Positions 47,601 to 56,600 of a stretch of 64,000 nucleotides of DNA are shown here, one piece after another. How positions within the stretch are numbered: position 1 is the first letter of the stretch; every line of letters begins with the position of its first letter. Under the pieces are notes generated by a model. That model was not told the origin of the DNA. It made no database searches and saw only the letters and a program-made list of their open reading frames with translations. Made by a program: the position numbers and the translations under genes. The stretch is from Owenia fusiformis (taxonomy: Eukaryota). The stretch spans positions 21,948,001-22,012,000 of the forward strand of contig CAIIXF020000001.1 of NCBI GenBank assembly GCA_903813345.2, read 5' to 3'.

Positions 47601-50600
47601 ACCTCTGGGACTGGTCAAAAGTGTTCAGATTATCAGATATTAACATTTTAATGTTTTATTTATCATGTCAGTCAAAAATGAAATAATTTGGGACTGTGAA
47701 AAAGTGTTCCCATTGAGAGGTGTTTGGATTAGAGAGGTGTTCAGATATACAGGTTTCGCTGTAGTTTGCAGGAACATTTGCAATCTATTGTATCATTGGG
47801 CCTCATGTACCATGACAAAACTAGATTGTCTAACAATGTTTGGATATTGAAGAAAGATTTAACATTTTCCAATGAGTACAGTATTTACAATGTTAAAGGC
47901 TCCATGTAGATTTCAAAAATATTTGTAATTATTCAAATATGATTTTTCATGACTTCTCTGAGATATGTTTAAAAAAAAGTAAAATTTAAAACAGAAGTTT
48001 TCGGTATTTTGATTATGAAATATTTGAATTTCCCAGATGGTTTTCCCTTATAATTTATTAAACATGTTTAGAAAGCTCAAGTAGATTTAGAATTGTTCAC
48101 TAAAACAGGATTTGCTTGTACCATAACACATTTAAATATGGTATATACATTTATTTAGTTGATGCTGCCACTTGTGAACAAAATGTACAAAAAAATATTC
48201 AAAAGCTTGCATTTAATTTTGAACCATGCATATGATGCCGCCATGCATGGTTATACTGCAATTTGATTGGTCAAAAGTGACAATGTATGCCTAGATATGT
48301 GAAATTGCTTACCTGTGCAGGTCAGCTCACCATCAGCAATGTATCCTCTCTTACATATACAGCTATGTATTGAGACACTTCCCAGTGATGACACATGGTT
48401 CACATCTGGACACGCTGTGCAGTTGCCATCCAGACCTTGTCCTGTGTAGTTCTTGTAGGTGCCTGATGGACACTCTGAAATTGGATGTTTAATTATATTG
48501 CTGCACCTCAAAATTACCAGATTGTTTAGATAACACAAACTTCAGAACTTAATCAACAAATAATTCCCAAAAAATGATTTTGATATGGAGATCAATTGCA
48601 TGCCACTGGCTGACTGGGTTATTTTTCTGTACCTAAAAAACATGTGAACTTGAAATATCAAGGAATACACATGTATTGCAGCTTTTCAAGATAGAAACTG
48701 TAAAATATTAGGTACCTTTGCAGCCTCCTGCTAGGCCATCCCCATAGAAACCCTCCATGCAGAAGCACTCGTATTGGCCTGTATGTGTGCCACATCTACA
48801 CATTGCATGTTCATCGCAACAATCTGCCCCTGGGGGACATAGACTGTCACATTTAGACTTGTTCTGTATTATATAACTGCCTGTGTGCAGATCTGAAATT
48901 CAGAAGAGGGTCATTATTAAATGTTGGAATCTTGTAAAATTCTTTTGAGTTCTTTCTTTCATTTTTTTCGAAGCCTGTGTTGTATACTAGACATAATAAT
49001 AATTTTCATAATAAAAATGTTCAATGATGGTTCTTTATGATTTTGCATTTGACCATGACTGAAAGAAGTATTTTGATAATAGATAATTTGATGATTATAT
49101 TATAAACATGTATAGTGTATTTATTTATTACATTGATATAACAAAAGATAGAAATATTTCACCTTCATGTAAAGCTCTTCTTGCCAGTGCCTCAAATTCC
49201 TCAAAACTGTCCAAGATATAACAATGTTCATTTGTTGGCTTTGATGCCATGTCTCTCAGCTCTGCAACATTACCGTTTCTAATCCCAAATGTGAAAATTT
49301 TAATTCCCTTGTCACGTAAAAGTTTGGCTTCAGGTCTAGGGTCTCCTGCATTGGAATAGCCATCTGTTATTAGGAAGACAGCTTTGGCTGCTTGTGGACG
49401 AGCTGATTTTAATACTTTCTGAAAATATTTGTTCGGTTTTAATTCAGCTTAAATGCTACACAAATAATGTATGCTAACGCTTAATTGAAATAAAAACTAA
49501 AAGATAAATTACACTCATGTACTGTAGGCTCTATTTTCAATTTCAAAATGCAATCAATTTTTGTAAAATATAAAGTAGCTGTAAGTGGTAAGAATAAAGC
49601 TATATCTGGCTAAAAGTGGTCATCTCAGTATAAATAATGAAGAGCAAGGGTCAGAGGAGGTTTTATAATATAAAGTCTTAGATTTTATAAAATTTAAAGG
49701 GGCAGTATCAGCAATAATGCAGTTTAGAAGAAAAAAGGATCAAATAATAATTGAAACATGTTACTCAAACAACCAATCAAATATGATACAAAGCTTGATT
49801 TGCATTGACATTGAAGTAAAAAAAGATTTGCGTAGAAAACAGCATTTGAAGTTCAGAGATCGTTTGAAGTGCTTGCACAGGGTACAAGCTTTGAAATAAC
49901 TCTTGATTGAAAAGATGGTGACACTTCTATCACAAATGAATGAATCATGAAATACAAATACCTTTGCCATCTTTCATTGACAGTAGATAGAAAACTGAGG
50001 GCATCAGGCCGCCACGGGCCGCCACGGGCCCGGGGCTTTCAAAATCTCTGAAGATGAGCAGGAGATATTGATGAGCAGGAGATAAATTAATTGAATGGGG
50101 ATTAGGAGATAAATTAATTGGATGGGGCTTTCATCTTAAATGGGTGAGAGATAAGATACGCATGACATCATTGTTATCTTAAATGGGTGAGAGATAAGAT
50201 GCGCATGACATCATTGTTATCTTAAATGGGTGAGAAATGTATTTCTTGGACTGAATAGTAAAGTACAAAATAAATCCCTTTAATATTATTTTAAATTTGG
50301 TATAATCCATTAACAGTGTTTACAATTCTACTTTCAATATTAACCCAACATTGAAAAGAATCAATAATCCTATTGAGCTGGTCAAACAAATACTGTTGGC
50401 ATAAAAGGAAAGAGAACTGGATTTTGGATTAAATATGAGTACAGATGAAAAGGTTTATTTATTTAAGTCCTATATTGAATTGACCGTTGAAAAGGTTTAT
50501 TTATTTAAGTTCTATATTGAATTGACCATTTGATCTTACTCTACTTGATTTCAACAATAATGGTCTTTTAATGTAATAATTGAATGTTGACATTTAACTG

Positions 50601-53600: not shown

Positions 53601-56600
53601 TGAACATTTGTGAACATCAGTGAACATTTGTGAACAATACTAGTGAACATTTGTGAACATCAGTGAACATTTGTGAACAATACTAGTGAACATTTTTGAA
53701 CATTTGTGAACATTAGTGAACATTTGTGAACAATACTAGTGAATATTTGTGAACAATACTAGTGAACATTTTTGAACATTTGTGAACATCAGTGAACATT
53801 TGTAAAACTAATGCTAAATAATGCTAACATATGCTAATGATGTAATGCTAACAGATGCTAACATATGCTAATGGTAATGCTAACAGATGCTAACATATGC
53901 TAATGGTAATGCTAACAGATACTAATGATAATGCTAACAGATGCTAACATATGCTAATGATAATGCTAACAGATGCTAATGAGGTAATGCTAACTAATGC
54001 TCATACATATTCAAACCATTTGTAAATGACTGTAAATAGCAACAACATTTGAAACTTTAGTTATTTATTTTTATTCATATCGTTCAGTATTATATACAAA
54101 TAACTTTAATCGTCCATCCTTGCTGGGATACCAGGTGGTTTGTATAAGAATGTCCGTTTCTTTCTTGTATTCGAAGTGTTTTGTTTTTTCTGTTTAAATG
54201 GATGTTTCTTCTTTATATTTACAGAGTTTTGTTGTTTCTCTTTAGATGGTCTATACTCTTCATGTTTCATATCTTCTTGTTGACGTTTCAATTGTGCCTT
54301 TGCTCTGTCGACAACTGCAGTCATGGGTGATATGATTAATACCGGTTTAGTATCTTCTTTAATGTCATCTATGCCTATCCACCCTCTTCCTGTTTGAGAT
54401 ACTTTCAATCTATTCTGTCTACCAGCTCTAATAAGTTTCAACCAGTGTTCTGGGTTGTCTACATATGGTACTAGTTTCATGGTTTTTAGTTGATGTGTAT
54501 ATATCAAGTATAAGGATTGAAATGATAAAGATTTGAATATTTCACTCAATATATATTGTCAAGTGGCATCAATATCATCTTCTTATCAACATCTGATGTC
54601 GTGATATTCTTAGAAACTGATGTCGTGAATTAATGTAGTTCTTGTTGTTATTGACCATTCCAGATTAGAAAGTTGAAAGATTATTTATATTCTTAACATA
54701 CATTCAATAGATTTTTCTGTCAAACTTCTGGAACCTTCCAGATGAACAATACTTGTGAACATCAGTTAATATTTGTACATGATAATTAAAGTATTCGACC
54801 ATGTCACAATACTAAATTCTCTCAATTTCTACTAAATTATTTACCCTCAATTTCATTGAAATTATTTACATAAAATACAATTCGCTCAATTTCTACGAAA
54901 TTATTTACATAAAATACAATTCATATATAACAACTAATCAAAGAAATTGGAACATATATGATCCTACTGCATTTAGATGTTGTGTTATTGAATATCATGT
55001 ACAGAATATTTAGGACTTACCTTAAACATGCATACAGATATGTCTAAATCACCAGTTGTTTACTACCATGTTCATAAATGGTCCACACACTTTTTGGAGA
55101 TTTTTATATGGTAAAAATGATGTCAAATTCTATTTTAGGGCATGATGTCATGTATTTTTTAAGAAACTTAGGTCATAAAATGATGATGTCATATACTCTA
55201 GATCATTCTAGAAAAAAGGATTAACACATTAAACAAAAGATGTTCTAGAATATGAAGGATTAACATTGTGATGACACAGTTAAATGTCAACATTCAATTA
55301 TTACATTAAAAGACCATTATTGTTGAAATCAAGTAGAGTAAGATCAAATGGTCAATTCAATATAGAACTTAAATAAATAAACCTTTTCAACGGTCAATTC
55401 AATATAGGACTTAAATAAATAAACCTTTTCATCTGTACTCATATTTAATCCAAAATCCAGTTCTCTTTCCTTTTATGCCAACAGTATTTGTTTGACCAGC
55501 TCAATAGGATTATTGATTCTTTTCAATGTTGGGTTAATATTGAAAGTAGAATTGTAAACACTGTTAATGGATTATACCAAATTTAAAATAATATTAAAGG
55601 GATTTATTTTGTACTTTACTATTCAGTCCAAGAAATACATTTCTCACCCATTTAAGATAACAATGATGTCATGCGCATCTTATCTCTCACCCATTTAAGA
55701 TAACAATGATGTCATGCGTATCTTATCTCTCACCCATTTAAGATGAAAGCCCCATCCAATTAATTTATCTCCTAATCCCCATTCAATTAATTTATCTCCT
55801 GCTCATCAATATCTCCTGCTCATCTTCAGAGATTTTGAAAGCCCCGGGCCCGTGGCGGCCCGTGGCGGCCTGATGCCCTCAGTTTTCTATCTACTATTGA
55901 CATTGGTAAAGACTTGATATTTGAAACTTGACAGATTGAAAGACCTTATAAACATGATAATCTATCAATCCATTGGAAATACTATGAAGTTTAAAAGTTA
56001 GTCTTCATTTTTGCCAAAGAATATCCCTTTAATAACCCTTAAATATTTATTTTTGAAGTTTTCTGATGAATCAACCAGAGTGGGTCAAGTCATTTATTTC
56101 ATGGATATTATCATTTGACAATCACAAAAGGTTGAACAATCTTGAGTAATAGTGATGAAACAATGTTCTGTTTTAACTGCAAAGAATCTACAATGAAGTA
56201 TAAACTTATCATCTAACTAATTAGGCAATATATATTACATGTTTGATTTTAAAAACTAGCATGGTCAACTCGCATTTATCATACTTAAGATATTAGATTT
56301 AGGAAAAAAAGATATTGCGATCAAAGAATGATTCATTTGTTTTAGAAGTAGTATTTCCTGTTTTACAAAAGAGAACCTTCAAAAAATAAATGTTTGTACT
56401 GACATAAACTCTTTCTTTAATTAGTTTCTGTTTGCGTCAACTTAAGAAATACTTTGTAAAATTGAAAAAATCTTTGTATTGTAAGCTTTTGAAATGATAG
56501 TCTGATCACTTGTTCAAGCCAGCTAATATAGAAAGTATCTGTCAATTTGCTGATAAAACTCTTTCATGTAAGGTTTTCAAGCTATTTGTACCACAGAGCA

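Follow-up and report, generated by a model that had tools for sequence, protein, structure and literature searches.

A foldback element with near-identical, gene-bearing arms and a 6-bp target-site duplication, from an abundant repeat family of the annelid Owenia fusiformis

The 5,914-bp element at positions 49982-55895 of the window (the whole 64,000-nt stretch of DNA that was analyzed) is a member of an abundant, gene-poor, multi-copy annelid repeat family that includes shorter derivatives. The tandem arrays in its arms and its short middle are classic foldback-transposon anatomy. We read it as a non-autonomous foldback DNA transposon, probably moved by machinery of the Maverick/Polinton type, and give this reading as a whole about an even chance of being correct.

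Insertion, arms and arrays

The mobile-element insertion is genuine. The insert is directly abutted on both flanks by ATTGAC (49976-49981 on the left and 55896-55901 on the right), confirming the perfect 6-bp target-site duplication (TSD) proposed by an earlier sequence-only reading of this DNA. The same holds for the AGTAG...CTACT termini that it described, as the outermost 30 nt are the same at both ends (AGTAGATAGAAAACTGAGGGCATCAGGCCG) once the right one is reverse-complemented. The 29-mer of the terminus occurs twice within the window, compared to 0 occurrences in 100 shuffles. The outermost 13 nt (AGTAGATAGAAAA, or AGTAGATAG in short form) are located at 49982-49994 on the forward strand and, as the reverse complement, at 55883-55895 on the reverse strand, and read contigs of a diverged subfamily terminate in the same 13 nt (loose end at 50010). 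The terminus 21-mer had 0 matches in IMG/VR and in the JGI metagenome contigs. In this single copy, the A at 49982 is also the base that follows the right ATTGAC, so the duplication could alternatively be 7 bp long (ATTGACA), the ends then being shifted by one base.

The inverted arms measure 2,868 and 2,947 nt, in agreement with the two arms of ~2.9 kb noted earlier, and flank an asymmetric polypurine spacer of 99 nt (52850-52948, forward strand; 33 A, 58 G, 8 T, and no C), which corresponds to the ~100-bp purine spacer of that reading. An ungapped scan of one arm against the other gave 2,844 nt at 96%, and the gapped alignment consists of blocks of 2,545 and 293 nt with 0 mismatches in 2,838 aligned bases. 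The two blocks are separated by one 10-nt indel, an array unit that only the left arm has (52527-52536). The outer ~1.8 kb had been described as showing no net indel, and the actual identity is stronger than was claimed. At a divergence of 1%, the probability of observing 0 arm differences is 5e-13.

From the outside inwards, each arm comprises the 13-nt end, a G+C-rich block, several short subterminal direct repeats, a gene for a 124-aa protein, and tandem arrays. The subterminal block contains GCCGCCACGG twice followed by GCCCGGGGC (50008-50036, forward strand; mirrored at 55841-55869), and the outermost 59 nt (49982-50040), which include this block, have a G+C content of 66%, compared to 31% over the 1,885 nt of the arm that precede the arrays (49982-51866). 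The direct repeats, given here for the forward strand of the left arm, include a 43-bp subterminal repeat in 2.4 copies (50133-50235; mirrored at 55642-55744), a 42-bp repeat in two copies (50446-50527; mirrored at 55350-55431), and repeats of 39 and 25 bp (50955-51056; mirrored at 54821-54922). The inner third of each arm, ~1 kb, is made up of arrays with a 10-bp period, which the sequence-only reading had overlooked. Array A has AGCATTAGTT-type units with periods of 10, 22, 32, and 54 (51867-52071, forward strand; mirrored at 53809-54010), and array B has ACAAATGTTC-type units with periods of 10, 43, and 86 in the left arm (52074-52849, forward strand). The right-arm array B (52949-53803, forward strand) is longer than the left one, extending ~110 nt further inward (52949-53057). 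The left arm contains the motif TGTTCAC 69 times, and the right-arm array B contains its counterpart GTGAACA 76 times.

A multi-copy family with a gene in each arm

Read contigs show that the element is not a unique mini-genome but belongs to an abundant family, some members of which are shorter derivatives. The read analysis covered positions 49400-52070. In run X1, contigs with a depth of 35-47 each add up to 43-130 in the bins of the flanks, whereas bins of the ORF rise to 2,800-3,700 and those of the terminal 300 bp to 15,800-18,800; these contig depths are not copy numbers, and the termini of the family number roughly 100 or more. Family contigs diverge from the element by ~0.8% (2 of 256 bases) up to 6% (19 of 318 bases, plus 7 gaps). 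Some are deletion derivatives, with joints from 50213 to 51962 and from 50214 to 51961, and MITE-like derivatives have only the termini in common with the element. Within the window there are no further copies.

An inward-reading ORF of 124 aa is located at 51397-51771 on the forward strand of the left arm, with AATAAA-type signals just downstream, and a copy with an identical translation is located at 54106-54480 on the reverse strand. The earlier statement that the element has no core genes stands insofar as none of the eight stop-to-stop ORFs of at least 50 aa matched an integrase, polymerase, ATPase, protease, or capsid protein in Pfam, but it missed this conserved ORF. The eight ORFs represent the left arm and the centre; the remainder of the 19 are mirror copies in the right arm or ORFs of the flanks. 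As no core gene or enzyme is encoded, any movement requires a helper in trans, as had been proposed.

The 124-aa ORF is kept across at least four diverged subfamilies, with 9 invariant columns among 11 sequences. Its only relatives among 1.84 billion representative proteins are five unannotated proteins of 77-131 aa, and those that are named all belong to Owenia fusiformis. Two of the relatives, P0001 and P0002, differ from the ORF of the element at 2 and 4 of 124 residues, respectively, and their L48Q, Q68H, and H73Y states recur among the read variants. The sole Pfam match, to MBR1, was sub-threshold (16.8 bits against a cut-off of 25). There were 0 matching families in PHROGs, nothing better than E ~0.8 among PDB sequences, a best score of 0.87 in the ESM Atlas, which is under the meaningful level, and no tblastn relative among 37 pattern matches in IMG/VR and 149 in the JGI metagenome contigs. 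Without similarity in Pfam, PHROGs, PDB, IMG/VR, or JGI, the ORF provides no tie to Polinton genes. The AlphaFold2 model has two helices and a poor mean pLDDT of 55.8. The protein has a basic tail and may be an accessory factor that binds the arrays in the nucleus. In RNA run X23, the depth on the arm is ~1-2 reads, and 72% of the 61 placed reads continue into unlike sequence.

Relation to Mavericks and a possible mode of movement

The Maverick signature consists of 6-bp TSDs and a commonest end motif of 5'-(AGT)2//(ACT)2-3' (PMC8097293), and Polintons likewise have a TSD of 6 bp (PMC10045372). The element resembles vertebrate Mavericks in its terminal inverted repeats (TIRs) and in the ATTGAC found on both sides of this single copy. 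Conserved ends of the class begin with (AGT)2 or (AG)3, and the AGTAGA...TCTACT ends match (AGT)2 at only 5 of 6 bases, the motif being defined in vertebrates and not in annelids. Long TIRs that carry genes also occur in some insect polintons, including the ~2-kb, repeat-filled TIRs of butterfly polintons (preprint 10.1101/2025.02.07.637071). The Polinton interpretation of the sequence-only reading is partly supported. The TSD and the AGT-starting ends agree with the literature, but the abundance and short derivatives of the family are unusual, as polintons are usually low-copy and non-autonomous copies were absent in one genome survey (PMC3014272). The element is also unlike Mavericks in other respects. 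It is 5.9 kb long, whereas Mavericks are 13-25 kb, it lacks pPolB, integrase, capsid, ATPase, and protease genes, and its TIRs are 2.9 kb with 10-bp-period arrays, whereas those of vertebrate Mavericks are 46-1,447 bp. Homology of the arms to a Polinton end or gene, sought through the ORF family, was not detected in viral contigs, Pfam, PHROGs, or PDB.

If the Maverick/Polinton link holds, a retroviral-like integrase of this type would join the AGT-starting ends to a 6-bp staggered cut, and the protein-primed polymerase of the helper would copy the element from its ends. The displaced single strand could then fold into a full hairpin or panhandle, in which one arm would effectively be proof-read against the other at each round, and such proof-reading would leave the arms without substitutions. 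A role of the terminal repeat in "jumping back" during protein-primed replication has been proposed (PMC8097293). We count it in favor of the Maverick-type foldback reading that the arms have 0 mismatches while other copies of the family differ. The palindrome itself may have arisen when a parent with long TIRs lost its interior, or through a template switch of the copy-back kind.

A somewhat unlikely extension of this reading is that the whole family is a Maverick/Polinton satellite, namely hairpin mini-replicons that retain from the helper no more than its replication and integration ends and that have a small, conserved, nuclear DNA-binding protein of their own and hundreds of 10-bp binding sites for it. 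Such a satellite would be a "parasite of a virus-like transposon" that has its own gene and outnumbers its helper, with a perfect palindrome remade at each round of protein-primed replication. Even without the satellite, a Maverick link would make the family a non-autonomous derivative of a self-synthesizing virus-like transposon, and one with high abundance, a self-folding shape, and a gene of its own. The family would then be a natural substrate for examining the end-sequence requirements of the Maverick integrase and protein-primed polymerase, and would mean that the foldback shape can arise among Mavericks too. In the literature, outside of supplements and Repbase, we found no description of a non-autonomous or palindromic Polinton like this element. 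Should the link not hold, what remains is a foldback family whose 6-bp duplication is unusual and whose conserved gene is an orphan, and it would still aid the annotation of annelid repeats.

Alternative explanations

That the element is a foldback member of one of the DDE superfamilies that move by cut-and-paste (short-TSD Mutator-like, P/Galileo-like if the duplication is 7 bp, atypical hAT, or unclassified) is quite possible, without being the reading that we favor. The subterminal repeats and 10-bp arrays would then be binding sites of a transposase or accessory protein, the long TIRs would have arisen via TIR elongation and unequal exchange, and the arms would be identical through intra-element conversion or because the copy is young. 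Galileo has a TSD of 7 bp, and the possible ATTGACA parse counts toward this explanation, although it needs ends that are unlike by one base. The end motifs are YARNG for hAT and CA for P/Galileo, and we know of no terminal motif of the Mutator-like, P/Galileo, or hAT superfamilies that matches the AGTAG end. The architecture argues for cut-and-paste movement, as the element has long TIRs made of nested tandem arrays (periods 10, 22/32/54, and 43/86) around a short non-coding middle, and subterminal direct repeats together with TIR arrays are a typical binding-site arrangement of such families. High copy number and MITE-like derivatives that share only the termini are also typical of them. The element shares the two long, internally repeated arms and short middle with Drosophila FB, Tetris, and Galileo, which are also non-autonomous, vary in structure among copies, and have short relatives with the same termini; the TIRs of Galileo, a P-superfamily element, are long and contain internal repeats (PMC3573991). 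The foldback shape is reported to have arisen independently across several cut-and-paste superfamilies, and most foldback elements are Mutator-like (PMC4079207). MuDR TSDs range from 4 to 10 bp (PMC10045372), but the Mutator-type foldback elements, Tetris included, have TSDs of 8-10 bp (PMC4079207), whereas that of the present element is 6 bp, or 7 bp at most. Moreover, the Pfam scan revealed no transposase remnant in the element, and its end motif and the conserved protein-coding gene in each arm set it apart from FB, Tetris, and Galileo.

The sequence-only reading held that one end of a Polinton-like genome was copied back on itself and the product inserted by a helper. In such a copy-back genome, the polymerase would have left its template and continued on the nascent strand at a point ~2.9 kb from one end. 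Palindromic defective adenovirus genomes and derivatives of linear plasmids exist. Snapback or copy-back defective genomes are an established class, including in AAV (PMC8235507; review, PMC13506859), and like them the element is a near-perfect, helper-dependent palindrome with the same end at both extremities. The identical arms, the mirror symmetry up to ~100 nt from a single short loop, and the Maverick-like ends with their TSD agree with this proposal, but the centre is not a clean turn-around, given the 99-nt asymmetric tract and the longer right array, and a parent with 2.9-kb TIRs would yield the same structure by losing its interior, with no template switch. Unlike defective genomes of this class, the element is chromosomal with a TSD and belongs to a diversified multi-copy family, whose many members and at least four ORF subfamilies indicate that the arm of ORF plus arrays is a design of long standing that propagates, rather than the outcome of a single replication accident. 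A snap-back origin is possible, with internal deletion of a long-TIR parent explaining the structure equally well, but we judge the snap-back genome as a full explanation to be unlikely. Highly unlikely, in our assessment, is an artefact of the interior, in which the junctions are real and the assembler fused inverted arrays while dropping a longer interior, or took up a chimeric fold-back long read. The only difference between the arms, an indel of one 10-nt unit, is typical of long-read consensus errors, the reads cover only 49400-52070, and among the contigs listed none bridges a junction or the centre. However, a fold-back chimera would not give a TSD and two termini that are all perfect together with a distinct spacer that is not palindromic, the window contains no N, and the two arrays, being reverse-complementary to each other, cannot be merged by a simple repeat collapse.

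Other classes were rejected. Helentron-type satellite carriers are not known to have long TIRs or TSDs, both of which are present here. Dada elements insert into specific snRNA or tRNA genes with TSDs of 6-7 bp, and Rfam gave 0 matches to such a target at the insertion site (49500-56400, gathering threshold). The Ginger superfamily has TGTNR ends and TSDs of 4-5 bp (PMC2836005). IS3EU/GingerRoot elements are similar in having a 6-bp TSD and a transposase akin to the retroviral-type integrases, as in the mover proposed here, but their termini are TA..TA, or occasionally TG..CA (PMC10045372), whereas those of the element are AG..CT.

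Termini, arms and origin of the palindrome

The 5,914-bp insert (49982-55895) represents a foldback transposon of the non-autonomous type. Its ends and target site duplication (TSD) are Maverick-like, it carries a duplicated orphan gene, and it belongs to an abundant family. ATTGAC abuts it exactly on both sides (49976-49981 and 55896-55901), and its ends are exact reverse complements, each beginning AGTAGATAGAAAACTGAGGGC..., which bears out the insert with a perfect 6-bp TSD and AGTAG...CTACT termini described in an earlier sequence-only reading (AGTAGA and TCTACT are an exact mirror). 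The conserved 13-nt end is AGTAGATAG. Two matches to the 29-nt terminus are present in the window, compared to none in 100 shuffles. Base 49982 and the base that follows the right ATTGAC are both A, and this single copy is therefore also compatible with a 7-bp duplication whose ends would be offset by one base. The uninterrupted (empty) target site is expected to read ...TTTCATTGAC followed by ATTGG.... No further pieces of the element were found in the remaining 58 kb of the window.

An ungapped scan of the arms gave 96% identity over 2,844 nt because of a register shift. With gaps, the arms align in two blocks without a mismatch: 49982-52526 is the reverse complement of 53351-55895 (2,545 nt) and 52537-52829 that of 53058-53350 (293 nt), the sole difference between the aligned blocks being one 10-nt array unit (52527-52536) present in the left arm only. 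The two inverted arms of ~2.9 kb were thus correctly recognized from sequence, and the lack of a net indel noted there for the outer ~1.8 kb extends over 2,545 nt. The tandem arrays had not been described as such. From outside to inside, each arm consists of the terminus, a G+C-rich block, direct repeats and GACATCA motifs, an ORF, array A and array B. The G+C-rich block just inside the terminus carries GCCGCCACGG twice within the first 59 nt, which are 66% G+C compared to 31% in the non-array part of the arm. The subterminal direct repeats are 27, 43, 42, 39, and 25 bp long, and GACATCA occurs seven times per arm. Array A (51867-52071) has periods of 10/22/32/54, and array B (52074-52849) has periods of 10/43/86 and contains TGTTCAC 69 times; the right-arm array reaches ~110 nt further inward (52949-53057) than the left. 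The arms enclose a 99-nt polypurine spacer (52850-52948; 58 G, 33 A, 8 T, and no C on the + strand), in agreement with the asymmetric purine spacer of ~100 bp noticed earlier. The spacer is composed of GGA/GAGG-type repeats, and a non-B DNA conformation could form there. The element has the anatomy by which foldback transposons are defined, namely long terminal inverted repeats (TIRs) in which short tandem repeats are nested, on either side of a short middle domain (PMC4079207).

The arms differ at 0 of 2,838 positions, an outcome with a probability of 5e-13 at 1% divergence; the divergence between them has a 95% upper bound of ~0.1%. Other copies differ from this element at 2/124 and 4/124 residues, and contigs by ~0.8% to 6%. 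Since the arms are identical while other copies differ, the palindrome must be of very recent origin, or else each arm serves regularly as the template for renewing its partner; both readings offered earlier (recent insertion or ongoing arm homogenisation) are retained. In protein-primed replicons, a panhandle forms when the inverted ends of the displaced strand pair with each other, as is known from adenovirus. A displaced strand that is palindromic throughout would form a hairpin during such replication, and arm renewal would then come for free. A protein-primed model for Polinton replication is cited in PMC4046053.

The palindrome may have been produced by a copy-back (“snap-back”) template switch, that is, from one genome end as the sequence-only reading proposed. 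Snapback genomes have been described for AAV, and defective genomes have been reviewed. However, loss of the interior from a parent in which TIRs of ~2.9 kb were already present would account at least equally well for the asymmetric 99-nt spacer, for the unequal arrays, and for how old and diverse the ORF-bearing lineage is. Butterfly polintons provide examples of long TIRs (about 2 kb) that carry genes (preprint 10.1101/2025.02.07.637071). It is highly improbable that the interior is mis-assembled; the only arm difference is an indel, and none of the contigs listed bridges a junction or the centre, but a fold-back chimera would not yield a spacer lacking palindromy together with a perfect TSD and two perfect termini, and arrays in inverted orientation cannot collapse onto one another.

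An orphan gene in each arm

Each arm encodes an identical 124-aa protein in an inward-reading ORF (51397-51771 in the left arm), with a TATA-like sequence upstream and AATAAA-type signals downstream. In a stop-to-stop scan (≥50 aa), none of the eight ORFs from one arm and the centre contained an integrase, polymerase, ATPase, protease, or capsid Pfam domain; the other listed ORFs were right-arm mirror copies or flank ORFs. The earlier statement that no core ORF is present therefore holds for core Pfam domains but overlooked this conserved ORF. One homolog, P0001 (“unnamed protein product [Owenia fusiformis]”), is 98% identical to the ORF, and a second copy (P0002) is located on another chromosome-sized contig. 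A HMMER search against 1.84 billion representatives returned five family proteins in total (77-131 aa), of which those other than P0001 share 32-45% identity with the ORF. Two more O. fusiformis proteins were found by a profile search, and three members are encoded on short ENA contigs.

The 11 family sequences have a conserved N-terminal domain of ~75 aa, with nine invariant columns (V4, P5, W13, A19, P46, S51, A55, R59, and A60), and a variable Lys/Arg-rich tail. No longer or fused forms appeared in a HMMER search without length limits, and the family had no match in Pfam, PHROGs, PDB sequences, IMG/VR, or JGI metagenome contigs. The ESM Atlas returned nothing above chance level for the protein, and its AlphaFold2 model, with a poor pLDDT of 55.8, contains two helices. 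Conservation of the ORF in at least four diverged subfamilies argues for a functional gene belonging to the element lineage. Judging from the basic tail and by analogy, the product is a putative nuclear DNA-binding accessory factor, and the arrays are perhaps its candidate binding targets.

Family abundance and the machinery of transposition

Reads from public runs labeled as the same species were placed on 49400-52070. The bins of the unique flank (49400-49669) summed to a depth of 43-130 in run X1 (individual contigs, 35-47); the corresponding X1 values were about 1,200-1,700 for the unique arm segment, 2,800-3,700 for the ORF, and 15,800-18,800 for the terminal 300 bp. Summed contig depths are not equivalent to copy numbers, and in order of magnitude they correspond to arm copies numbering in the tens and to roughly a hundred termini or more. 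As termini outnumber arms, many shorter relatives carry the same ends. Derivatives without the unique 1.7 kb are represented in run X10 by the joints 50213 to 51962 and 50214 to 51961. In at least three X1 contigs, a different 28 nt adjoins 50010 and again starts with AGTAGATAGAAAA, so the 13-nt end is conserved across subfamilies. Variants among the ORF reads match the L48Q, Q68H, and H73Y states of P0001/P0002.

Dada elements, which have 6-7 bp TSDs and target snRNA or tRNA genes, are unlikely here as Rfam finds nothing at the insertion site. IS3EU/GingerRoot elements have a 6-bp TSD and always TA..TA, rarely TG..CA, ends (PMC10045372), and do not fit, as the element has neither type of end. 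Ginger elements have 4-5 bp TSDs and TGT ends (PMC10045372; PMC2836005), and the TSDs of MuDR and Polintons are 4-10 bp and 6 bp, respectively (PMC10045372). Vertebrate Mavericks have perfect 6-bp TSDs, as found here, and TIRs that range from 46 to 1,447 bp; their end motifs are conserved, most commonly 5'-(AGT)2//(ACT)2-3', and the terminal repetition is thought to permit ‘jumping back’ during protein-primed replication (PMC8097293). The end AGTAGA, in which AG occupies positions 1-2 and 4-5, matches five of the six positions of (AGT)2, a motif defined in vertebrates. Taken together, the length of the TSD and the end motif fit Maverick/Polinton best among described superfamilies, and the chance that Maverick-type machinery moves the element is about even. 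A cut-and-paste foldback family is less probable, although such families typically show subterminal repeats and arrays and give rise to MITE-like derivatives. The Maverick assignment is also weakened by the shortness of the end match, the vertebrate origin of the motif, and the possible 7-bp parse. Moreover, Polintons are usually low-copy, and a survey in Anolis reported no non-autonomous copies (PMC3014272). The Polinton/Maverick identity assigned from sequence is partly supported: the TSD and AGT-type ends favor it, and the short motif match, the abundance and the derivatives count against it.

Insertion site and surroundings

The window is metazoan DNA of 30-40% G+C, and the element is inserted in non-coding DNA between a Sushi-repeat gene and exons with VWA and Na+/Pi-cotransporter domains. 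The former is an uninterrupted 2,766-aa frame (22130-30430, - strand) in which 47 Sushi (CCP) repeats and one weak match to a hormone-receptor domain are recognized, a giant exon with strongly negative GC skew. The latter are exon-like ORFs at 58548-59303 and 62732-63793 (both - strand). An intronless 533-aa ORF (14075-15676, + strand) has a complete UDP-glucuronosyl/glucosyl-transferase domain (Pfam E 4e-88).

The left flank (49670-49970) is a high-copy dispersed repeat, with a summed depth of 4,000-24,000 compared to 43-130 in the flank bins further left, and it has more RNA reads in run X23 than any other part. The insertion thus lies within or beside another repeat. In X1, positions 49587 and 49904 are joined directly by a contig whose depth (37.7) is at haplotype level; the 316 bp omitted by it may reflect a presence/absence polymorphism of the flanking repeat; neither a TIR nor a TSD was found for the skipped segment (49588-49903). 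At 49419-49546, two overlapping allelic X1 contigs (depths 35.5 and 46.8) differ by seven substitutions and one indel in 128 nt, indicating that the material sequenced is very highly heterozygous here.
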